DNA from: an uncultured Bacilli bacterium
GTDB taxonomy: Bacteria > Bacillota_I > Bacilli_A > RF39 > UBA660
Length of the DNA: 64,000 nt
Assembly (NCBI GenBank): GCA_934101275.1
Contig: CAKOQM010000001.1
Coordinates: forward strand, 5,371-69,370
Direction of reading: 5' to 3'
Shown: positions 11,691 through 55,844 of the stretch, piece after piece
Layout of the letters: each line of letters opens with the position of its first letter
Numbering within the stretch: position 1 is the first letter of the stretch
Translations under genes and position numbers: made by a program
The notes under the pieces: model-generated
Database searches by the model: none
The model's input: only the letters and a program-made list of their open reading frames with translations
What the model was told of the DNA's origin: nothing

Positions 11691-13689
11691 AACTATTACA
11701 GGTTTTTTAGGAAGTGACTATAAAGTTGTTTCAAGTAAAGGCCACATCATGGATTTAGCCACATCTGGTAAGTTCGGATTAGGGGTTGATGTTGACAATG
11801 ATTTTAAAGCGAGTTATGTGCCTATAAAAGGAAAAAGTAGTCTCATCAAAGAATTAAAAAAAGACGTTAAAGAAGCCGATGAAATTATATTATCTACCGA
11901 CCCTGACCGCGAAGGTGAAGCTATTTCTTGGCATTTAAAAGAAACTTTAAAAATTGATGAAGATAAATATGTTCGTGTTACTTTTAATGAGATCACAAAA
12001 GATGTTGTTTTAAATGCTTTAAAAAATCCTCGTAAAATTGATGACAATCTTGTAAAAAGTCAAGAAACAAGACGTATTTTAGACCGAATTATTGGGTTTC
12101 GTTTGAGTAAACTTATGCAGAGTAAGACGGGTGGTAAAAGTGCTGGCCGTGTTCAAAGTGTTGCTTTAAAATTGATTGTTGATAGAGAAAGAGAAATTCA
12201 AGCTTTTGTTCCAGAAGAATACTGGACAATTGAAGCAATATTTAAAGATTTCACCGCGACTTTAGAAAAATATAAAAATAAAAAAATTACCATTAAAAAT
12301 GAAGAAGAAGCAACAAATATTGTTGAAAGCTTAGAAGATTATTTTAAAATAGCAGATAAAACAACCAAAGAAGCCTCACGAAATAGCAAACCGGTTTTTA
12401 AAACAACAACTTTACAAACTATGGCCTCAAATAAGCTTGGTTTTTCTTCATCAAGAACCATGCGAATTGCCCAAAAATTATATGAAGGGGTTGAAGTAGA
12501 GGGGAAAAGTATTGGTTTAATTACTTATATGAGAACGGATTCAGAACGTGTTTCCCCATCATTTGTTACTGAGACCAAAGATTATATAAAAACCACTTAC
12601 GGAGCAAATTATGTAGGTCAAGTAAAAGTTCCTAAGAAAAAGGAAAATATTCAAGATGCCCACGAAGGTATCCGACCAACAAGTATTTTAAATACACCTG
12701 AAAAATTAAAGAAATCTTTATCACCAGAAGAATACAAACTTTATGAAATGATTTATACGCGGGCTTTAGCTTCTATTATGGCGCCAGCGAAACTGCTTAA
12801 TACATCCGTCTCTCTTTTAAATAACGATTATTTATTTAAAACGACAGGAAGTGTTTTACTTTTTGATGGATATTTAAAAGTGTATAGTAAATATGAAGAT
12901 CAGAAAGATACGATTTTACCTGATTTTGACGCTTATGAAGAAGGTAAAATAAAGAAAGAAGAAATAAAAAAAGAACAACATTTTACCAAACCAGAATCAC
13001 GATATACCGAAGGTTCTTTAATAAAAACGATGGAAAGTTTAGGAATTGGACGACCAAGTACCTATGCTCCTACCATTCAGACATTAAAAGACCGGGAATA
13101 TGTTACTTTAGAAGAAAAGAAATTTGTCCCAACTAAAGTAGGGTTTGAAATTACAGATAAACTTCAAGAATTTTTTAGTAACATTATAAATGTAGAATAC
13201 ACGGCTAATATGGAAACAGAATTAGATGAAATTGCTGAAGATAAAATTAATAATGTCGATGTGTTAAAAACTTTTTATAATGAATTTGAACCAATGGTCG
13301 AAGATGCTTTTGGCAAAATGGAAAAAGCACAACCTCAAGAAACTGGTGAAATGTGTCCTTTATGTGGTTCTTCTTTAGTCATACGCCATGGTAGATATGG
13401 AGAATTCGTTGCTTGTTCCAATTATCCAAATTGTAAATATATTAAAAAAGAAGAGAAAAAAGTAGTAGAAGTTATGCCTTGCCCAAAATGCGACGGTAAA
13501 ATTATTGAGCGCAAAACAAAACGTGGCAAAATATTTTATGGTTGCAGCAACTATCCAAAATGTGACTTTGCTTCTTGGGATAAACCAATACTTCAAAAAT
13601 GCCCAAATTGTCAAGGTGTTTTAGTTGAAAAAAAAGATGGTATTCATTGTTTAAACTGTGATTATCATAAGGATTTAGAAGAAAAATAA
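11650..13689 (+). CDS. topA: DNA topoisomerase I
   Basis: 679 aa; TOPRIM N-terminus 'LMIVESPHKSKTI'; three C-terminal Cys4 zinc ribbons (CPLCGS...CSNYPNC etc.). Confidence 0.9.
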   Translation: MKKLMIVESPHKSKTITGFLGSDYKVVSSKGHIMDLATSGKFGLGVDVDNDFKASYVPIKGKSSLIKELKKDVKEADEIILSTDPDREGEAISWHLKETLKIDEDKYVRVTFNEITKDVVLNALKNPRKIDDNLVKSQETRRILDRIIGFRLSKLMQSKTGGKSAGRVQSVALKLIVDREREIQAFVPEEYWTIEAIFKDFTATLEKYKNKKITIKNEEEATNIVESLEDYFKIADKTTKEASRNSKPVFKTTTLQTMASNKLGFSSSRTMRIAQKLYEGVEVEGKSIGLITYMRTDSERVSPSFVTETKDYIKTTYGANYVGQVKVPKKKENIQDAHEGIRPTSILNTPEKLKKSLSPEEYKLYEMIYTRALASIMAPAKLLNTSVSLLNNDYLFKTTGSVLLFDGYLKVYSKYEDQKDTILPDFDAYEEGKIKKEEIKKEQHFTKPESRYTEGSLIKTMESLGIGRPSTYAPTIQTLKDREYVTLEEKKFVPTKVGFEITDKLQEFFSNIINVEYTANMETELDEIAEDKINNVDVLKTFYNEFEPMVEDAFGKMEKAQPQETGEMCPLCGSSLVIRHGRYGEFVACSNYPNCKYIKKEEKKVVEVMPCPKCDGKIIERKTKRGKIFYGCSNYPKCDFASWDKPILQKCPNCQGVLVEKKDGIHCLNCDYHKDLEEK

Positions 13690-13697
13690 AATTGCCT

Positions 13698-13760
13698 CTT
13701 GACGTTCGGGGGGGGGGTATCTGTTATAATCATCATAGGAAGACTATGGTGATTTTTTCT
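13698..13760 (+). promoter_or_regulatory. Promoter cassette with a G10 homopolymer in the -35/-10 spacer, followed by an inverted repeat and a T-run (copy A)
   Basis: TTGACG at 13698-13703; G10 at 13707-13716; extended -10 TGtTATAAT at 13721-13729 (20 nt spacer); inverted repeat atcatcatag/ctatggtgat at 13728-13752 then TTTTTT; a near-identical cassette lies at 51725-51795 on the minus strand. Confidence 0.6.
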
Positions 13761-13897
13761 TGCAAAAAATCACTATTACCCTTCACATTTATAACTAAAT
13801 GGTATTGAAATGTTATAATGTTTTATGTACTAAGTAAAAAGCGTTTAAAACGCACCATACTGTTACATACTAAAAAGAAAAAGGAGTTGTTCCATTT

Positions 13898-15505
13898 ATG
13901 GAAAAAAAGAGAAGAAATATTTTAATTACAATTGTTTTATTAATAGGTATCATCGCTGTTATAGGCGTCTCTTATGCTTTATGGGTATTGAACTTAACTC
14001 AAACTGGTCAAAATGATATTGTTTCATCATGTTTTAATATCACTTATGAAGATAAAGACAATATTAGTTTACAAAAGGCCTACCCAATCTTAGATGAAGA
14101 AGGAAAGAAATTAGTACCATATGAATTCACGATTACCAATTCTTGTGATTCCTATGCTTCTTTTAATGTTAATCTAGAAGTCTTAAATACCACGACTTTA
14201 ACAAACAACGATGCCGTTAAAGCTATGATATCATCAAAAACAAATGATACCGAGACAGAGATAACAACGAGTTTATTATCAAGTTATCAAACAACCACGA
14301 AAACCTTAGATAATGCTAAAATAGCATTTAATTTAACAACAGGCTATTTAAATGTAAAAGAATCTAAAACTTATACCTTAAGATTATGGTTAGACGAAAA
14401 TGTGGATATGAATACCGAAGGTGTTCAAAATGCTAAATTTAGTTCAAAAGTAGTTGTCACAACAAGCTATGCAGAAGAAATACCGAAATCTGCGGTAGAG
14501 ACAATAGTATCATTAGTAAGTGGAGCAGATATTAGTTCAACAGATGTTTATACAGTGCCAGATAAAGAAGGAGATAATTGTACATATACCTTCGTATATG
14601 ATGGAACGAGTGATAACAATTTAAGATATGTCGGATCAAATCCATGTAATTATATAAAAATAGATGATGAGTTATGGCGAATCGTTGGTGTGATGAATAG
14701 CATAGATGATGGCACAGGCAAGAAAGAAAGCCGTATAAAATTAATCCGGTCAGAGTCAATAGGAGGATATTCTTGGGATACATCCGATTCTAGCATAAAT
14801 GGAGGCTATGGTATAAATGAGTGGAGTCAAGCCGATTTAATGAAACTTTTAAATCCAGGGTATGAAAGTGAAAGCGTTGGAGGTTCTTTGTACTACAATG
14901 GTGGTTCAGGCACATGTTATAGTGGTCAAAGTAATACAACATCTTCTTGTGATTTTGCAAGTAGTGGCTTAAAAGAAAATTTAAAAGCATTAATAGGGGA
15001 TGCTATCTGGAATACCGGAAGTAACGATGGTGTCATATATGGGTATGATACAATAACTAGTAAATTCTATGAATTAGAAAGAAGTAATAATACAGGGAAG
15101 ATATGTTCATCAGGAAACTATTGTAATGATACCGTAGAAAGAACGACAACGTGGACAGGAAAAGTAGGATTAATATATCCTTCTGATTATGGATATGCGA
15201 CTAGTGGAAGAAGAGCTGCAAGTCAAAGCAGTTGCTCAAATGAAAAAATGTCTAATTGGATTGCTAGTTCTTATAGTGATTGCAGATCTAATGATTGGAT
15301 ATATAATTCATCTACTCAGTGGACTATTTTTCATTATGCGTTCTCTTCATCTGCTAGTGATGCGATGTATATTAGAGATACTGGAGACGTCAATACCAAC
15401 TATGTGGGTGTTAATAATGGTGTCCGTCCTTCTATTTATTTAAAACCTAATGTTTCTATTTTGTCTGGTGAAGGTACTTTGGAAGATCCCTATGTATTAG
15501 GATAA
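13898..15505 (+). CDS. Secreted/surface protein, paralogous family member A (N-terminal signal-anchor, Ser/Thr-rich, conserved C-terminal module)
   Basis: 535 aa; 'KKRRN' then TM then 'GVSYALW'; 'YTLRLWLDENV' block shared with the 51404 ORF; C-terminal 'GVRPSIYLKPNVSILSGEGTLEDPYVLG'; RBS AAAGGAG. Confidence 0.8.
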   Translation: MEKKRRNILITIVLLIGIIAVIGVSYALWVLNLTQTGQNDIVSSCFNITYEDKDNISLQKAYPILDEEGKKLVPYEFTITNSCDSYASFNVNLEVLNTTTLTNNDAVKAMISSKTNDTETEITTSLLSSYQTTTKTLDNAKIAFNLTTGYLNVKESKTYTLRLWLDENVDMNTEGVQNAKFSSKVVVTTSYAEEIPKSAVETIVSLVSGADISSTDVYTVPDKEGDNCTYTFVYDGTSDNNLRYVGSNPCNYIKIDDELWRIVGVMNSIDDGTGKKESRIKLIRSESIGGYSWDTSDSSINGGYGINEWSQADLMKLLNPGYESESVGGSLYYNGGSGTCYSGQSNTTSSCDFASSGLKENLKALIGDAIWNTGSNDGVIYGYDTITSKFYELERSNNTGKICSSGNYCNDTVERTTTWTGKVGLIYPSDYGYATSGRRAASQSSCSNEKMSNWIASSYSDCRSNDWIYNSSTQWTIFHYAFSSSASDAMYIRDTGDVNTNYVGVNNGVRPSIYLKPNVSILSGEGTLEDPYVLG

Positions 15506-18575: not shown

Positions 18576-18699
18576 GCCAGTTAAGGCTTATTTTTGCCGT
18601 AAGTGGTGTCTTTAAGAAAAGGTTCTATAAAACGTTTGTATTCCCTATAGATTTATGCTAGAATAAAACATACTTATTTTAAAGGGGGGGAAAATAAGT

Positions 18700-33603: not shown

Positions 33604-34185
33604 ATGACACTTTTAAAAAAGTTTTTTAATCAAAAAAAATATCTTTTTTTGTTTATGAGCACACTTCTTTTCATTGGTTTTACTATTGGTCTTTATTTAA
33701 GCATTATGCATATCTCCTCTTTAAAAGACAGTCTTTATTATTTTATAAGTAATAAAAATAATTTGCATTTAAACTATCTTTATATTCATTTTTTCTTTCT
33801 TGTTATTAGCTTTCTATCTTCATTTTTTGTGGTCGGTTTAGCCATACTTTGCACTCTTATTTTTTACGAAGGTATGACTTTAGGTTTTTTACTCGGATTA
33901 TTTAGCCTAACGTTGTCTTTTAAAGGTGGCCTTTATGCTCTTATTTTTTTTATTTTTACCCAGTTGTTTTATCTTATTATTCTTTTTCTTTTTTTTATTA
34001 AATGCTTTAATATAGCCCGTAAAATGATTGGCAAAGTCCTATATAAAACCGATCCCACCAATTATCTTGTTTTAATGACGAAAAGTTGTGGTCTTTTAAT
34101 TTTAGCTGTGGTTCTTTATGACTTTTTACTTCTTCTTTTCAGTAAACCTTTATTAAACGTTTTTGCTTTTCTCTTAGAAGTATGA
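33604..34185 (+). CDS. SpoIIM-like polytopic membrane protein (putative)
   Basis: 193 aa, about 5 TM; 'FYEGMTLGFLLGLFSLTLSFKGGLYALIFFI' resembles the SpoIIM/DUF95 core. Confidence 0.45.
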   Translation: MTLLKKFFNQKKYLFLFMSTLLFIGFTIGLYLSIMHISSLKDSLYYFISNKNNLHLNYLYIHFFFLVISFLSSFFVVGLAILCTLIFYEGMTLGFLLGLFSLTLSFKGGLYALIFFIFTQLFYLIILFLFFIKCFNIARKMIGKVLYKTDPTNYLVLMTKSCGLLILAVVLYDFLLLLFSKPLLNVFAFLLEV

Positions 34186-34218
34186 TAAAATAGGCCTTAG
34201 AAAAAGAGGTCGAATACT

Positions 34219-35334
34219 ATGGCAAAAAAAGTAATTGTTGGAATGAGTGGGGGAGTTGACTCTGCCGTTAGTGCTTATTTATTAAAAAAACAAGGCTATG
34301 AAGTAGAAGGCCTTTTTATGCGTAATTGGGATGCAGGGCTTAATAACGATATTTTAGGCAATCCTACTTTAAATAATAATATTTGTCCTCAAGAACAAGA
34401 TTATAATGATGCCTTGAAAACTTGTGAAATTCTAGGTATTCCTCTTCATCGTGTAGACTTTATCAAAGAATATTGGGACAACGTTTTTACTTATTTTTTA
34501 AATGAATTAAAAAAGGGAAGAACTCCCAATCCAGATTTGCTTTGCAATAAATATATTAAATTCGATGTCTTTAAAAAAGAAGCTAAAAAACTAGGTGGTG
34601 ACTTTATGGCTACAGGTCATTATGCTAGATTAAAAGATGGACTTCTTTTAAAAGGTGTCGATGAAAATAAAGATCAAACATATTTTCTTGCTCAGTTAAG
34701 TAAAGAACAATTAGAAGATGTTTTATTCCCTGTTGGAGATCTCCATAAAGATGAGGTAAGAAAAATAGCAAGTGAATGTGGTTTAAATGTTGCCTCAAAA
34801 AAAGACTCCACGGGAATTTGTTTTATTGGCGAAAGAAATTATCAAGAATTTATCCGCAATTATTTAAAACCTAATCCTGGGAATATTGTGAATGTCGAAA
34901 CAAAACAAGTGATAGGTAGACACACTGGACTTATGAACTATACCATTGGTCAAAGAAGAAATGTCGGCCTTTCCGGATTTCAAGAACGTCATTATGTCTG
35001 TGGTAAAAATGTTTTTAAAAATGAACTCTATGTAGCTTTTGGCGATGACTCTAGTTATTTAATCAGTGATAGCTGTCTTTTAGAAGATGTCAATTTAACT
35101 ATCAATAATCCGCCAAAGAAGTGTCAAGCTAAATTTCGCTACCGTGGAGAAGATTATCCTATTGAACTTGAAATTTTGCCTAATAAAATGTCCAAAGTTA
35201 CTTATAAAGAAGGCGTTAAAGCCGTAACTCCTGGACAATTTTGTGTTTTCTATGATGGGGATATTTGTTTTGGCAGTGGCATTATTAAAGAAATTTACAA
35301 AAATGATGAAAGAATTTGGTATTTAAATAATTAA
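34219..35334 (+). CDS. mnmA: tRNA-specific 2-thiouridylase MnmA
   Basis: 371 aa; PP-loop 'VIVGMSGGVDSAV'; 'CNKYIKFDVF'. Confidence 0.9.
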   Translation: MAKKVIVGMSGGVDSAVSAYLLKKQGYEVEGLFMRNWDAGLNNDILGNPTLNNNICPQEQDYNDALKTCEILGIPLHRVDFIKEYWDNVFTYFLNELKKGRTPNPDLLCNKYIKFDVFKKEAKKLGGDFMATGHYARLKDGLLLKGVDENKDQTYFLAQLSKEQLEDVLFPVGDLHKDEVRKIASECGLNVASKKDSTGICFIGERNYQEFIRNYLKPNPGNIVNVETKQVIGRHTGLMNYTIGQRRNVGLSGFQERHYVCGKNVFKNELYVAFGDDSSYLISDSCLLEDVNLTINNPPKKCQAKFRYRGEDYPIELEILPNKMSKVTYKEGVKAVTPGQFCVFYDGDICFGSGIIKEIYKNDERIWYLNN

Positions 35335-35379
35335 GTATGTTACCAAGATAAATCTTTCAGCTTCTTTATTTACTTTTAC

Positions 35380-35409
35380 TTGACACAAAAGTGTCTAGTG
35401 CCTTATAAT
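35380..35409 (+). promoter_or_regulatory. Sigma-A-like promoter for the 35449 gene
   Basis: TTGACA at 35380-35385, 18 nt spacer, TATAAT at 35404-35409. Confidence 0.5.
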
Positions 35410-35448
35410 TAAAATGTAAATTATAAATAAAGAGAGTAGGCAAAGATA

Positions 35449-36243
35449 ATGAACAGATTAAACGAATTATTACAAGAATTAGGAATTTCAAAAGTGCGTT
35501 TAGCAAAATATTTAGGTGTTTCTAGACAAATGGTATATAATTACCTTGAACTTGACGATATTAATAAGTGGCCTAAAGAAAAGAAAATTTTGCTTTATCG
35601 TTTATTAGATATTAATGATGATAAAAATCAGTCTATTGATTCTATAAAAGTAACAACAGATTATCTTATGAGTGTAGAAAATAGATTAAATACAGGTGTT
35701 AAAGGCACTAACAATATTTCTAACTATTTTGACTTAAAGAATTTAAATAAGGAATCTCAAATTCTTATTACCAATATTTTAAATCTATTAAGAGAAAGGT
35801 TAGGGGATGATAAGAAAAAGCAAGAAAATTATTACGCTTTTTTATACCTTTATCATATGCTTCAATCTATGGACAATGTACCTGAAATAAAATATATATT
35901 TGGTTATATGTCTAAAGCAACAGGATTTACAAATCCTGAGGAATTCAAATTTAATGAAGATAGACAATTTATCTTTGAAGGAATATTGTACTCTGCCCTA
36001 ACGCTTTATAACAATGGGGGAGCCTCACGTAGTAAACTTGCCCTATCACATAAACGTTTTGTTCAAGAGATAGAAAAACAAAATGAAGAAAAATTAAGTC
36101 GTACGCAACAATTATTTACTTTAAGAACGCAAGCTTTAAAAGAACTTGGTTATAGTGAAATGAACGGTTCGAATGCTTCTGAAATTATTGAAAAAATTGC
36201 TGAAATTGAATCACGTGGTTCAATTATGAATGCTGATGAATAA
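35449..36243 (+). CDS. HTH-domain protein (N-terminal XRE-like HTH, uncharacterised C-terminus)
   Basis: 264 aa; 'LGISKVRLAKYLGVSRQMVYNYLE'. Confidence 0.6.
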   Translation: MNRLNELLQELGISKVRLAKYLGVSRQMVYNYLELDDINKWPKEKKILLYRLLDINDDKNQSIDSIKVTTDYLMSVENRLNTGVKGTNNISNYFDLKNLNKESQILITNILNLLRERLGDDKKKQENYYAFLYLYHMLQSMDNVPEIKYIFGYMSKATGFTNPEEFKFNEDRQFIFEGILYSALTLYNNGGASRSKLALSHKRFVQEIEKQNEEKLSRTQQLFTLRTQALKELGYSEMNGSNASEIIEKIAEIESRGSIMNADE

Positions 36244-36501
36244 TATCTATATTTTTATAGATATTTTTTTATCTTAAAACTTGCAACGAGATGATGGATT
36301 ATTCATCTTTTAAAATTTCGATGCAAATTAGAAGATATACAAATTTATAAATATTTAAATAAATATTAAAAATTATTATTAGAAAATCAAATATTTTGAC
36401 AAAGACTAGAATGCTAAAACCAAACAAATGAAATGATATATTATAGTAATATTTAAGGTAAAATAATTTTAATTTAAATATAAATTTGCGATAAAATTAA
36501 T

Positions 36502-36529
36502 GTATTTTTAAAAGTTGCATAATATATAT
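36502..36529 (+). repeat. dif-like XerCD-type site (attL of the prophage)
   Basis: AAGTTGCATAA-TATATA-TTATGTTAACC; spacer and right arm match the Firmicute dif consensus recalled from B. subtilis (ACTTCCTAGAA-TATATA-TTATGTAAACT) at 6/6 and 9/11. Confidence 0.55.
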
Positions 36530-36547
36530 TATGTTAACCGTGATATT

Positions 36548-36832
36548 TTAAATTAAATGCAGTTCGCTATACTGCTCTTGTTCTCTTTTTTTATAGATTT
36601 CTAAAAGTTCGATACGTTGTTTTATTAATTCTTTATAAAACATAAGTTCTTTCATAGAATAACACGACAACATTGCATAGCGTTTGTAATATTCATGATG
36701 ACCATAAACCTTACAAAAATTATAAGCACATACTAACAAATCATATCGATTTTTTAAATAAGTTAAGTTATTACAAGAACTAACTTCTTTTACAAACTTC
36801 TTTTCATTTTCAGATAAACCTTTATAAATCAT
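36548..36832 (-). CDS. Phage hypothetical protein (possibly the C-terminal part of a frameshifted rep)
   Basis: 94 aa; overlaps the rep 3' end by 11 nt in another frame. Confidence 0.4.
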   Translation of the reverse strand: MIYKGLSENEKKFVKEVSSCNNLTYLKNRYDLLVCAYNFCKVYGHHEYYKRYAMLSCYSMKELMFYKELIKQRIELLEIYKKREQEQYSELHLI

Positions 36833-37451
36833 AGTAAGACATTACCCTTTCATACGGCTCATTATGTTTTTGCAAAGCCCTTATAAATGTCACAGTCGAA
36901 CGTCTATAAATATCATACAAACCATTTAAAGCCACATACCTAACAAAATCTTGTTCATCTAAGTAACCAACAAAACTATCAATGTAATCCAACAATTCTA
37001 AAACCTTTTCACTCTCATCTTTACCGGAATTTTTAATATAATTTTTTAACTTTTGTTTGAGACTACCCTGTACATTTCTAACGTCATATTGATACTTATC
37101 AGGTTCATTATAATGAATCAAATAAAGTAAACTACGTTCTAAACTTCGACATTTTTGTATATAATTAATTTCAATACCTAAATCTTTAGCTAAAGCCGAA
37201 TTCCATACTGGATTATTAAAACGGATAACAACATGTGTATGAACTTTTTTTAGATTTCCATCTTCATCTAAATCACTATCATGATTAATCGAAGCATAAT
37301 CGTATGAACGTTTTACAATCTCAATTGCTTCTTTATGGCTTTCGTCCTCATTTGGATAAAGTAACAAGCAAAACTTTCTATCTCTAAACTTTTCAATAGC
37401 CAAACTATCACCCTCCCCTATTTTGACACAAATTTTTTTAAATTGACACAA
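36822..37451 (-). CDS. Rolling-circle replication initiator (HUH endonuclease)
   Basis: 209 aa; HUH-like 'KKVHTHVVIRFNNP'; Tyr-rich 'YLIHYNEPDKYQYDV'; sits next to the hairpin-rich IG region. Confidence 0.55.
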   Translation of the reverse strand: MCQFKKICVKIGEGDSLAIEKFRDRKFCLLLYPNEDESHKEAIEIVKRSYDYASINHDSDLDEDGNLKKVHTHVVIRFNNPVWNSALAKDLGIEINYIQKCRSLERSLLYLIHYNEPDKYQYDVRNVQGSLKQKLKNYIKNSGKDESEKVLELLDYIDSFVGYLDEQDFVRYVALNGLYDIYRRSTVTFIRALQKHNEPYERVMSYYDL

Positions 37452-50484: not shown

Positions 50485-51679
50485 TTAAGGCGTTTGAATG
50501 ATATAAGGACTACTTGAAGTACCAATTCCGCCACTTATTTTGGCATCCTCTTTTATATTTATAATAGCTGTGATAAGTCCAATAGAATATTTTAGAGCTT
50601 TATTTCCTTTTTTACTTGTCGTCACAGTAAAACGATCATTTTCATTAGGACATGTTAATATAGGCGATATCTTCCATTTGATATAAGCCTTTATCAGATT
50701 TATCACTTTCTTCTTCTGTTTGATTAGCACATAGCCACTTAAAGTGTATTTTCTCGTTTTTATAGATGTGCCACCAAATCTGGTTGCAGTACATCTGTAA
50801 AACTTGCTTTTGAAAGCTCATATACAGATACACAATTTGAAGTTGCTTTCCAAATGGTGACAATGTCTTGACAACTTGTTGCATAACCTGCATTACAAAA
50901 ATAATACTTGGCATTTGTATAATCTAATGTTGTCAGATCTAATTGTTCTACATTCGTTAAGACATATTTACCTGTCTCACTATTATTAAAGGTATAGCCG
51001 GTTCCAATAGGAAGTAAGACATAAGAAGAACTTAAATTTTTAAATCTCTCATCATTATCTTTTAAGGCTACTAAGTCAGGATGAGGCATCGTAATAGATA
51101 CATTAGATGTTGTACTCGATTTACTTTCATTCCATATTAAGATACTGATGGTTACTTTGGATAAAAACATTGTGTTCATAGCATCTGTGTCTTCTGCTGT
51201 TACATTTTCATCCATCCATAATCTTAAAGTGTAATCGGAACTGTCTTCCGTTCCTAAAGTACCTTTTAATAAAATTTTAGAGGTGGTTACATTATCTAAA
51301 ATTACTTCTGTACTTTCTAAATCCTTTAAATTTGTCATAGCTTCATTATTTACCATAGCTTTTATGTATTTATAAGGCATAGTTATCTCTTTTAATATTT
51401 CCAAGTTAATAGTGTAACTTAAAAATAAATCACAGGTATTTGTTATAGTAAAGCTATAAGGAGTTAGCTTTTTTCCTTCTTCATCACTTATTGGATAAGC
51501 TTTTTCTAAATTAATATCATTTTTTCATTTGTTAAAGACAAACTTAGACAGCTCGTTACTAACTTATTTGGATTATTCTGCGAAAATGTTAAAAACAAAT
51601 AGGCATAAGAGATGCCTATGACACAAACTATTAATAATCCTATTCCGAGTAACAATACTATTTTTTCCTTTTTATTCAT
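50485..51679 (-). pseudogene. Decayed paralog of the 13898 surface-protein gene: frameshift at an A6 tract plus downstream stop and frame break
   Basis: N-terminal ORF (ATG 51679) 'MNKKEKIVLLLGIGLLIVCVIGISYAYLFLTFSQNNPNKLVTSCLSLSLTNEK' stops just after the run gaaaaaatgat; one extra A would fuse it to 'NDINLEKAYPISDEEGKKLTPYSFTITNTCD...YTLRLWMDENV...' (ORF 50760-51404); the 50485-50730 ORF ends 'ISGGIGTSSSPYIIQTP', like the 13898 C-terminus 'LSGEGTLEDPYVLG'. Confidence 0.65.
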
Positions 51680-51795: not shown

Positions 51796-52089
51796 GGGGA
51801 TTTTGGAAAAAGTTGCTATTAGTAACTTTCTGTATGATTTTATGTTGTATAAAAATAACGGGTATTTTAATATATTTTTCTTTGTAACAATTTCATAACC
51901 GTTTTCTGATCCGAGGTCCATTTATTGCATGTACTAGCCTGTTCATCACATAAACCTCCACAGCAAAAACTATTACAATTTGAACAAGTATGTTTAATAC
52001 TATTAGCAAGTTTATTAGCCATAAGTGTACAAAGGCATAAGTAAATTAAATCCTCATCATATGTCTTTTTAGAACCCAATTTTTTTTAA

Positions 52090-53363: not shown

Positions 53364-53714
53364 CTAATTTTTAGGTTTAAAAATAAAAGATAAGACAAAA
53401 GCAAAAATAACAGCACTCGTTATTGCCGCGGAACTTTTGACAAGTAAACCACTAAAGAGACCTAAAATTCCCATTTCATGGTAACCTTCTATAACACTTT
53501 GATAAAGCATATTACCAAAGTTAGAAATCAAAATCGTCGCGCCTGCTCCTCCAAAAGATATAAGTTTTGGATAAAGGCCAAAGAAAGCTAAAATAGCCCC
53601 TAAAACAGTAAACATAGAAGTGATATGGCCAGGTGTTAATTTTGTATTATCTAAGATAAGTTGGGCGACAAGACAAAAAAGACCTGTGACCAAAAAAGCA
53701 TTTATATAAATCAT
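53364..53714 (-). CDS. spoVAEB: Stage V sporulation protein AE (SpoVAEb-type)
   Basis: 116 aa membrane protein; 'FGGAGATILISNFGNMLYQSVIEG' SpoVAC/SpoVAEb family core. Confidence 0.7.
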   Translation of the reverse strand: MIYINAFLVTGLFCLVAQLILDNTKLTPGHITSMFTVLGAILAFFGLYPKLISFGGAGATILISNFGNMLYQSVIEGYHEMGILGLFSGLLVKSSAAITSAVIFAFVLSFIFKPKN

Positions 53715-54691
53715 TTTGTGACCTCCAAACTAACAGCATGAGCAATGGCTGGAATTGTTATTTTTTGATTAACAAGAAAAGGATTATGTAAGGAACCCGT
53801 TCCTATAATCAAAATACGATGATACTTATTAGATTTTAAGATTTTTCCAAATAAATAAAGTGGTAAAGCAACAGGGCCGCTGGCACCTGCATTTGTTTCT
53901 TCCTGATTTTTTAAATATAATTCGCAGCCAGCATCTAAATGTTTTGTAAGTTTTATGTGATAGGCTTGTTTTAAATATTCTTTTAATATTTTTGATCCAA
54001 TACAACCTAAGTCTCCTGTTAAAATAAGATCATAATAATCTATAGAACGTTTCATTTCCTTTAAATGTTCATTTAAAACATCCGCGGCAGCAGGGGCCAT
54101 GATCGCTCCCATATGGCTTGTATCGTTTTGTCCCATATCAATAACTTTACCAATCGTATAACTTTCTATTTTTATAGAAGAAGGCTCCTTTGTAAGTAAA
54201 ACACTAACACTACCCGTGGCCGTAAACGTCGCAGTTAAGGGTCTTGGCGCGCCGTATTCAATAGGATAACGAAATTGCTTTTCAGCCGATAAATTATGTG
54301 ATGATGTCACACAGATTCCTAAAGCTTTTGTTTTATTTTCGAGAAATTCCGCGGCTAGAAATAGACTTTCCACAAAAGATGCGCAGGCGGAATAAACACC
54401 TAAATAAGGTATATTATAATAACGAGCCGCATAACTAGATGTTCCAATTTGATTCGATAAGTCCCCTGAAACAAGTAAAGAAATCTGACTTGGTAACAGG
54501 TGATTTTTTTCTAGTAAATTATCTACAGCAACTTTTTGCATTTTAATTTCTGCTTGTTCAAATGTACTTGCTTTAAAATAAAAATCATCTAAAGTCATAT
54601 CATAATCTTTTACACTCCCCTCTTTTTCGAAAGGTCCCGCAATTGTAAAAGTATCTTTGATATAGACATTATTTATTTTTTTACTAGCCAT
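53711..54691 (-). CDS. spoVAD: Stage V sporulation protein AD
   Basis: 326 aa; thiolase/ketoacyl-synthase-like fold, 'MASKKINNVYIKDTFTIAGPFEKEG'; overlapping starts and stops with its neighbours. Confidence 0.8.
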   Translation of the reverse strand: MASKKINNVYIKDTFTIAGPFEKEGSVKDYDMTLDDFYFKASTFEQAEIKMQKVAVDNLLEKNHLLPSQISLLVSGDLSNQIGTSSYAARYYNIPYLGVYSACASFVESLFLAAEFLENKTKALGICVTSSHNLSAEKQFRYPIEYGAPRPLTATFTATGSVSVLLTKEPSSIKIESYTIGKVIDMGQNDTSHMGAIMAPAAADVLNEHLKEMKRSIDYYDLILTGDLGCIGSKILKEYLKQAYHIKLTKHLDAGCELYLKNQEETNAGASGPVALPLYLFGKILKSNKYHRILIIGTGSLHNPFLVNQKITIPAIAHAVSLEVTK

Positions 54692-55121
54692 AAATGATCA
54701 CCCCTAAAATTCCTAAGAAAAAGGCACTTACCATACCGTATAATAATACACTTCCTGCCAAGCGAAAAAAATTAGAACCAAGACCTGTAATAAGGCCATC
54801 ACGTCTATAATCTAAGGCGGCTGAAGTAACCGAATGGGCAAATCCTGTTGTTGGTAAAAAAAGACCGGCCTGACACTTACTTACCCATGTATCAAAAAAG
54901 CCTAACGAGGTCAAAAAACTAGAAGCAAATATCATTGTAATGCAAAGCCATACAAAAGCTTCTTTTTGGGGAATACCAAAACAATTTTCTAACACCGTCA
55001 CAAAAATTTGACCCATTAATCCTATTAATCCTCCCACGAAAAAAGAAATAAAAGCACGTTTCATTTTAGGCTCTTTTGGTTTTAACTCATCCACTAATTT
55101 TTGATATTCATCTTTATTCAT
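54684..55121 (-). CDS. spoVAC: Stage V sporulation protein AC
   Basis: ATG at 55121 behind RBS AGGAGGA; membrane protein 'FISFFVGGLIGLMGQ...LFLPTTGFAHSVTSAALDYRRDG'. Confidence 0.75.
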   Translation of the reverse strand: MNKDEYQKLVDELKPKEPKMKRAFISFFVGGLIGLMGQIFVTVLENCFGIPQKEAFVWLCITMIFASSFLTSLGFFDTWVSKCQAGLFLPTTGFAHSVTSAALDYRRDGLITGLGSNFFRLAGSVLLYGMVSAFFLGILGVIIYG

Positions 55122-55217
55122 ATCTGTCCTCCTAGCCCTAGTATGGAATGTTTTTTTAAAATTATACCCATAGACAGGCAATCAAATGTATGGTAGGATT
55201 ATAGACGAGGTGTAGAA

Positions 55218-55844
55218 ATGGAAGAAAGTGTAAAATTAACAGCCAAACAGGAAAAAGTTTTGGATTGCATAAAAAAGTATCAAGCAGAGCATGGTTTTCC
55301 CCCAGCCGTCAGAGAAATTTGTGAAATCCTAGGCTTATCAAGTCCTGCCACCGTACAATCCCATATTAATAATTTAAAAAAAGCCGGTGTGATTCGTAAT
55401 TCAAGCAACAAATTTAGAACACTTGAATTACTTGTTGACAATGAATATTTAAAAGAAGAAGATGGTATTATAAAGGTACCTTTACTTGGTAAAGTAACTG
55501 CAGGAAATCCTATCGAAGCTATTGAAAAGCCAAATGAATTTTTTGAACTTCCTGCTTGTTTAGTTCCTTTAAATAAAACAGTTTTCACTTTAAAAGTAAG
55601 TGGAGATTCTATGATTAATAAAGGTATCCAAGATGGGGATATTGTAATATTAGAAAAACAAAATGTTGCAAATAATGGGGATATTGTGGTAGCCATGACA
55701 GAAGATAATGAAGTGACTTTAAAAACTTTTTATAAGGAAGAGGATCATATCCGTTTACAACCTGAAAATGATACGATGAAGCCTTTTATTTTCCATAATG
55801 TGACCATTTTAGGAAAAGCTATTGGCCTTTTTCATCAATTTTAA
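55218..55844 (+). CDS. lexA: LexA repressor
   Basis: 208 aa; N-terminal wHTH; C-terminal S24 peptidase 'VSGDSMINKGIQDGDIVIL', Ala-Gly cleavage site 'VTAGNP'. Confidence 0.9.
   Translation: MEESVKLTAKQEKVLDCIKKYQAEHGFPPAVREICEILGLSSPATVQSHINNLKKAGVIRNSSNKFRTLELLVDNEYLKEEDGIIKVPLLGKVTAGNPIEAIEKPNEFFELPACLVPLNKTVFTLKVSGDSMINKGIQDGDIVILEKQNVANNGDIVVAMTEDNEVTLKTFYKEEDHIRLQPENDTMKPFIFHNVTILGKAIGLFHQF

Follow-up and report, generated by a model that had tools for sequence, protein, structure and literature searches.

A conserved poly-G promoter cassette, a candidate slippage switch, upstream of putative exported proteins in uncultured gut Bacilli

Programmed heterogeneity of gut commensals is known mostly from invertible promoters. 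In the AT-rich genome of Campylobacter jejuni, tracts of G8-G11 cluster narrowly around a modal length, and many of them are coding and out of frame in the consensus. In Mycoplasma hyorhinis, each member of the Vlp lipoprotein family has its own poly-A promoter, so that the members are turned ON and OFF in combinations. The vlp family is cited in a review (PMC11868660). In Neisseria meningitidis, a homopolymer in the promoter spacer of porA (poly-G) and opc (poly-C) sets the spacing between the -35 and -10 elements and results in graded expression of the surface protein (PMC7864442). In Treponema pallidum, a poly-G tract lies between the -35 and -10 of tp0126, for which the optimum is 17 nt, and in tprL the predominant length in vivo is G9, with G8 active and G10 close to background (PMC7864442).

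The locus described here has its closest precedent, by analogy, in the T. pallidum poly-G promoters (tp0126, tprE/G/J, tprF/I and tprL). The mechanism itself is already known; the lineage and the gene family are new for such a system, and our literature search turned up no report of phase variation by repeats in RF39 or uncultured gut Bacilli. The window, that is, the whole stretch of DNA analysed, is 64 kb from an uncultured gut bacterium of the RF39-type Bacilli, and its cassette from position 13699 onward is referred to as copy A.

The copy A cassette and its downstream gene

An earlier note on this DNA had described a G10 run between a TTGACG -35 and an extended -10, TGtTATAAT, making the spacer 20 nt, and an inverted repeat followed by T6. 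All of these elements are present where the note placed them, the inverted repeat (AATCATCATAG/CTATGGTGATT) being at 13728-13754 and the T6 at 13753-13758, and the cassette reads as follows.

13699-13704, plus strand: -35 hexamer TTGACG of promoter P1 (direct reading)
13705-13724, plus strand: spacer of 20 nt, TTC + G10 + TATCTGT (direct reading)
13708-13717, plus strand: G10 homopolymer, candidate slippage tract (direct reading, word count)
13722-13730, plus strand: extended -10 TGtTATAAT, with TG at 13722-13723 and TATAAT at 13725-13730 (direct reading)
13728-13758, plus strand: 11-bp hairpin and T6, intrinsic terminator of topA (terminator scan, folding, compensatory changes)
13746-13776, plus strand: alternative 13-bp stem-loop, ATGGTGATTTTTT / AAAAAATCACTAT (folding; predicted at the 5' end of the P1 transcript)
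13811-13819, plus strand: P2, a second extended -10, TGTTATAAT (alignment, comparison with non-G paralogs)
13882-13885, plus strand: ribosome-binding site GGAG, preceding the 535-aa gene
13898-15505, plus strand: 535-aa ORF, member of the putative exported-protein family (ORF list)

Upstream of the cassette lies topA, ending at 13689, and the 535-aa ORF is followed by pflB and then pflA. The GC content of the window is roughly 30% (about 0.26-0.37 per 2 kb). In the homopolymer census G10 is an outlier against one G7 and one G6, and the 8-G word GGGGGGGG has a single match site, the copy A tract; no other run of at least eight G's occurs in the window. In 100 shuffles the mean count of this word was 0.08, and the observed count was reached in none. 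Next in length come two G7 runs, one in a ribosome-binding site at 18684 and the other in the second cassette, copy B; the long G tracts of the window are confined to the two cassettes. The G7 at 18684-18690 (plus strand), the only other plus-strand G run of 7 or more, forms the ribosome-binding region, AAAGGGGGGGAAAATAAGTATG, of a gene for a GNAT acetyltransferase. The copy A promoter is missing from a promoter scan that accepts spacers of 16-18 nt only, as would be expected if its spacer is too long. ENA ERZ28614404 scaffold_716 matches the window at 100% identity, and the same G10 is found in two ENA assemblies encoding an identical 535-aa protein. Together with the recurrence of the cassette across the assemblies of several studies, this argues that the copy A tract is not an assembly artefact.

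The hairpin at 13728-13758 folds at -12.8 kcal/mol (z = -4.0) and is flagged as terminator-like by the terminator scan. Pairing is kept in 97% of cells over 12 copies, with compensatory changes at two pairs, and the hairpin with its T6 sits 39 nt past the topA stop, as expected of an intrinsic terminator. Thus the inverted repeat near the -10 is real, but rather than a part of the switch, it is better read as the terminator of topA, and an insulator, overlapped by the -10. Since the 5' arm starts inside the -10, a P1 transcript, whose predicted start is about 13737, some 7 nt past the -10, would lack that arm. In our reading, the hairpin ends the upstream gene and insulates the cassette, and the P1 transcripts escape. 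The alternative stem-loop at 13746-13776 folds at -14.9 kcal/mol (z = -4.9) with 92% of cells paired and no compensatory change across the aligned copies; as modelled, it could be built in P1 transcripts from the terminator 3' arm and the T-run.

Two other candidate elements were rejected. Hairpin 1, which would join the G tract to a pyrimidine run upstream of the -35, is without covariation, and pairing in slid controls reaches 77-84%, indicating a composition effect. A leader peptide starting from the ATG at 13747 is likewise discounted; the ATG is missing in two copies (L007 and L039) and the 'SD' in the loop is variable.

The downstream gene had been said to encode a secreted protein of 535 aa. 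An ORF of that length is present, and 'secreted' remains a prediction from one N-terminal hydrophobic segment. This single segment spans about residues 7-32; all 10 Cys lie beyond it, and the protein past it is 38% S/T/N/G. The first Cys is residue 45 and none lies at the end of the segment, as a lipobox would call for. Profile searches of Pfam, NCBIfam and PDB with the protein gave no match. A first AlphaFold model was unusable (pLDDT 40); a 54-sequence model reached pLDDT 65 and is predicted to be rich in beta-strands, and with it Foldseek returned weak matches only (TM <=0.38), to beta-sandwich, pilin, CBM and adhesin types. Judged from its sequence, the protein is likely exported or surface located.

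The protein has 4080 homologs in metagenomes, and a scan of one genome per species gave 9-17 paralogs per MAG. The tract precedes members of what is, by these numbers, a multi-copy family of putative exported proteins, which it would control. The hosts are MAGs of uncultured 'Bacilli', 'Tenericutes' and 'Erysipelotrichaceae' recovered from the guts of humans, chickens, rabbits, mice and ruminants. Four family paralogs without a G tract (P0008, P0019, P0089 and P0107) served as contrast. Two of these, P0008 and P0019 (L125:3596-4620; L143:3296-4020), adjoin small genes, including a TadE-like gene and a CbiA/ParA (TadZ-like) ATPase gene, and there are hints that the family is linked to a Tad-type pilus or secretion locus. 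L125 is flanked by an IS (DDE_Tnp_1).

The second cassette of the window, copy B, precedes a decayed paralog.

51795-51735, minus strand: copy B cassette, 86% identity to copy A over 78 nt
51786-51775, minus strand: copy B tract G4-A-G7, interrupted, in a 21-nt spacer (sequence read)
51768-51763, minus strand: copy B TATAAT, followed by hairpin and T6 as in copy A (sequence read)
50485-51679, minus strand: decayed paralog behind copy B (tblastn, ORFs and sequence)

Copy B is identical in a Logan assembly. The N-terminal domain of its paralog shares 43% identity with the same domain in the copy A protein (tblastn). The paralog is broken up over four or more frames, first at an A6 run near 51520, and represents a pseudogene in decay or else another slippage site, this time of poly-A. 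A seventh A at this run would restore ...NEKNDINLEKAYP... in the paralog. Directly upstream of copy B, at 51867-52079 (minus strand), is a 70-aa Cys-rich ORF (...CSNCNSFCCGGLCDEQASTCNKW...).

Some features of the window at large were also recorded. Cumulative GC skew has its maximum at about 34000-37000, where the gene orientation flips from mostly plus to mostly minus, and the window probably spans the replication terminus. In both cassettes the G's are on the inferred leading strand. Genes like SpoVAC, SpoVAD and SpoVAEB, and lexA, are found at 53364-55844, by which the organism looks like a spore-forming Firmicute and not a wall-less Mollicute, even though some related MAGs are labelled 'Tenericutes'. 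The whole window has no Rfam match at gathering thresholds. A permissive Rfam scan of 13600-13950 gave just one match, to rliB, at chance level (E = 0.5; 16 bits, where the gathering score is 40). No known RNA family was recognised. A sigma-B-like GGGTAT at the 3' end of the tract has no matching -35 on direct reading and was rejected.

Conservation, spacing and tract length in related genomes

The cassette is about 75 nt long, comprising the -35, N3, G tract, N7, -10, hairpin and T6, and it recurs upstream of many family paralogs. Copies came from a profile search of family loci and from metagenome contigs scanned with an anchored pattern (L145 and L007 are one and the same contig). The layout TTGAC[A/G]-N3-tract-N7-TATAAT-hairpin-T-run is constant over 24 distinct sequence contexts. 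Both hexamers are near-invariant in more than 20 copies, and the N3 and loop sequences vary. The -35 is TTGACA or TTGACG in every class-1 copy except copy B, which has TTGGCG, and TGY-TATAAT is kept in 10 of 12 aligned copies. What is looked for in a contingency locus, an uninterrupted homopolymer of at least about 8 nt in the spacer, is found here as G10, with the same layout in those more than 20 copies. The genes upstream of the cassettes differ (topA, thiI and others), and therefore the conserved hexamers are not explicable as part of the 3' end of any one gene.

It is hardly credible, in our estimate, that the region is simply the topA terminator with chance promoter-like words, or that the poly-G is an artefact of assembly or sequencing. 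The hairpin and T6 do lie close behind topA, and two-colour Illumina chemistry can produce spurious poly-G. However, the entire cassette is kept behind unrelated genes and before paralogs in many independent assemblies, and the tracts are internal to long contigs with unique sequence on either side. Hairpin 1, with no covariation and with slid controls that pair nearly as well, also speaks against this explanation. Contig breaks near the cassettes (L003, L152) were considered as a sign of tract heterogeneity and set aside, the repeat explaining the breaks more simply. As far as conservation can tell, this is a real, evolutionarily maintained poly-G promoter cassette.

Sequence similarity between the copies extends beyond the cassette. 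The 400 nt past it, covering the 5' UTR and N-terminal coding sequence, are 88-94% identical DNA, whereas whole proteins are only about 60-75% identical (the comparison took in L004, L011, L018, L020, L022, L106, L115 and the window). Tandem copies have 185 nt of identical upstream sequence in common. The identity past the cassette suggests concerted evolution or gene conversion at paralog 5' ends. Such similarity, along with the presence of a second promoter, could mean that the cassette is a homology block for recombination or gene conversion, in which the G tract is a passenger and expression is P2-driven or constitutive. P2, which begins some 85 nt before the start codon, corresponds in the alignment to the one promoter region that paralogs without a G tract possess, and in copy A it is intact. 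However, four of the nine G-tract copies have P2 mutations in critical positions (TATAAC in two copies, TGTAAT in one, and TATAGT together with loss of the TG in one), and in L007 and L039 the whole P2 region is absent, leaving P1 with G10 as the sole promoter; the P1 hexamers meanwhile stay at consensus. A homology block also leaves an uninterrupted G10 in a genome of about 30% GC unexplained, and does not account for G tracts in other promoter layouts and in coding regions. We regard it as quite improbable as a full explanation; recombination and a promoter switch are compatible with each other. The intact P2 has a consequence for the switch too: the copy A gene could be expressed from P2 independently of the tract, so that the tract may modulate copy A expression and not gate it. 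Moreover, the extended -10 (TGn) may make P1 active whatever the -35 spacing.

The spacer of the cassette is at odds with ordinary promoters of the same genomes. In the window and 80 related loci, promoters of the form TTGACN-Nx-TATAAT without a G-rich spacer have their mode at x = 17 (14 of 30), and among 29 unrelated promoters caught as a control by the same metagenome pattern, 27 have 15-18 nt, again with mode 17. The ordinary spacing thus appears to be what the main sigma factor of the host uses. The G-tract promoters of the window and the 80 loci have spacers of 19 (3), 20 (8) and 21 nt (1), and of 17 or 18 nt in no case; the cassette copies from the metagenome pattern have 19 (4), 20 (5) and 23 nt (1). 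The cassette spacer is consistently 2-4 nt too long for these genomes. With the near-invariant hexamers, these counts uphold the view of P1 as a sigma-A-type promoter with an over-long spacer.

One natural variant has the ordinary length. In this 'locked' form, TTGACA-GTC-GGAGGGG-TAT[A/C]TG[C/T]-TATAGT, the tract is an interrupted one of 7 nt and the spacer is exactly 17 nt. It is found at a thiI-adjacent site in L006 and three P0042-locus assemblies from three different studies, unchanged in the four assemblies, and it precedes an intact gene. The P2 of the locked copies is TGCTGTAAT, in which the critical -11 position is altered. The locked form fits 17 nt as the functional optimum, with P1 as possibly the sole promoter. 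Interrupted tracts overall give spacers of 17, 19, 20, 21 and 23 nt, and so are not uniformly of 17. The suggestion that loss of 2-3 G would restore 17-18 nt is borne out in part: a 7-nt variant with a 17-nt spacer exists in nature, but a pure G7 or G8 was found in none of about 17 distinct pure-tract contexts.

Those pure-tract contexts comprise 13 G10, 3 G9 (among the tracts, that of L115 is G9) and 1 G11 (L020 has this length), and in most comparisons at the same locus G10 is matched by G10. The tract is stable at the P0080 locus (G10 in three samples) and at the window locus (G10 in both assemblies). Tract-length variation between near-identical strains, which had been looked for, is found at the P0031 locus, where the protein is identical: the Hadza MAG L004 has G10 + G10 at its tandem cassettes, L142 has G10 and L141 has G9 + G9, all of them consensus-assembly values in which homopolymer miscalls remain possible. 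L004 and L141 differ over 4008 aligned nt by 2 SNPs and two one-G indels and by nothing else, and the A/T runs of 6-7 nt, of which this stretch has 19, are all unchanged. At another site, the tract is G5AGAG in three assemblies and G6AGAG in two, with 400-nt upstream flanks 99-100% identical, and a relative whose flank is 96% identical has G10 there. Length differences with constant flanks between close strains, a second mark of contingency loci, are thus seen in the consensus assemblies, and a tract of the copy A type is very probably hypermutable. Since G10 is strongly modal and the same across samples, the presumed ON length would be two to three slippage steps off.

Poly-G elsewhere in the lineage and the proposed switch

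Runs of G8 or longer are not restricted to the cassette layout. In 587 kb of family loci, all 21 such runs are on the sense strand of the gene. Promoters of other layouts have the G tract directly against the -10.

L027:2912-2950: promoter TTGACT-N9-G9-T-TATAAT, 19-nt spacer, tract directly against the -10
L045:2930-2965: promoter TTGACT-N8-G10-T-TATAAT, 19-nt spacer, tract directly against the -10
L043:173-215: promoter with G10 against a weaker -10

Others are in coding sequence. Tracts of G9-G11 are found within the first ~15 codons of relatives, several of which have a common C-terminal domain and a different N-terminus. Simulation of tract lengths, a restored full-length ORF being about 385-510 aa, shows that the consensus is out of frame for five of the six tracts, and that a one-G change (two in one case) mends it.

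L035:1016-1100: coding tract L035a, G9 to G10 restores the ORF
L035:2561-2650: coding tract L035b, in tandem with L035a, G11 to G12 or G9 restores the ORF
L014:4627-4700: coding tract, G9 to G10 restores the ORF
L049:1134-1200: coding tract, G10 to G9 restores the ORF
L065:2964-3010: coding tract, G9 to G8 restores the ORF
L041:3404-3470: coding tract, in frame

Read from sequence, out-of-frame coding tracts are a classic contingency-gene signature. They also indicate that it is normal for this lineage to have a majority-OFF consensus, and this lessens the tension raised by the G10 mode.

In the model that we favor, and consider reasonably probable as a whole, slippage-controlled -35/-10 spacing would act as an expression switch with G10 as the low state. 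The cassette would be portable and insulated, with a sigma-A-type P1 whose consensus -35 and extended -10 are set 20 bp apart by G10. Because its -10 overlaps the 5' arm of the terminator, read-through from upstream would be stopped, and P1 transcripts would reach the gene. Replication slippage would alter the tract by single G's, and with it the -35/-10 spacing and the strength of P1. The G10 majority, as also G9 and G11, would most likely be a weak or OFF state, and shrinkage to G7-G8, with 17-18 nt, would yield a consensus promoter. As the same cassette precedes several family members, a population would carry a shifting mix of expressed variants, in the manner of contingency loci. Our confidence is greater in the promoter status and the hypermutability of the tract than in which length is ON.

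The same modal length can be read differently. The G10/20-bp spacer might itself be the working state, serving a G-tract-binding or DNA-twisting activator or acting as a structural spacer, with the one-G variants as incidental, mildly deleterious products of slippage. Such a fixed-length function is unlikely, although several observations agree with it. Activator-dependent promoters of the MerR type typically have 19-20 bp spacers, and the consensus-like hexamers of the cassette are likewise 19-20 bp apart. G10 is strongly modal over paralogs, species and samples, the two class-2 promoters arrive at a total of 19 nt differently (9 + G9 + 1 and 8 + G10 + 1), and the sense-strand placement of all 21 runs points the same way. 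However, the spacer TTCGGGGGGGGGGTATCTGT has no dyad symmetry and no inverted repeat within it, and no conserved regulator gene is found near the cassettes, whose upstream genes differ between copies. A MerR-type activator-dependent promoter was rejected for want of a dyad-symmetric operator and an associated regulator gene. Further, the same lineage has coding G tracts, where only the reading frame can matter, and in four assemblies the gene behind the 17-nt locked variant is intact. Mutational equilibrium, too, can produce a modal length, and tprL of T. pallidum switches despite the dominance of G9 (PMC7864442).

It is rather improbable, in our view, that the G10/20-bp geometry is a selected new architecture, either through an unknown factor or G-tract conformation or as a rheostat parked three steps off the optimum. 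Were it so, a mobile terminator-promoter cassette would be spread across a large surface-protein family, with all tracts strand-specific.

Significance and comparison with known systems

The finding points to repeat slippage, in promoter and coding poly-G tracts, as governing a large unannotated family of putative exported proteins in low-GC uncultured Bacilli of human, chicken, rabbit and ruminant guts. Tract length can be counted in reads, which offers a handle on strain-level surface variation and, possibly, on evasion of immunity (IgA) or phage. At such loci, the gene calls of MAGs (frameshifted 'pseudogenes') and consensus sequences would be misleading.

The known systems resemble the present one in different respects. 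Like many tracts of C. jejuni, the coding tracts of the related loci are mostly out of frame; unlike those, which are mostly intragenic, the copies of the window are in a promoter spacer. As in the vlp system, members of a multi-gene family each stand behind a homopolymer-bearing promoter, but the homopolymer here is poly-G and not poly-A, the protein has no lipobox, its first Cys being that at residue 45, and the sequences are not homologous. As in porA, the homopolymer is inside the -35/-10 spacer; however, porA is a single gene whose lengths bracket 17 from below, whereas here there are many paralogs and all of the observed lengths are above the optimum.

The likeness is greatest to T. pallidum: both organisms are hard to culture, and in both poly-G lies in promoters of paralogous genes for putative surface proteins, which in T. 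pallidum are putative outer-membrane proteins. The G10 majority would have its parallel in tprL, where the majority length is also not the most active one. The differences are that the present organism is a low-GC gut commensal of Gram-positive type, that its family is unrelated, unannotated and known here from sequence, and that the resting spacer is three over the optimum and not one. Finally, unlike the T. pallidum promoters, the cassette carries an overlapping upstream terminator and often a second promoter downstream.
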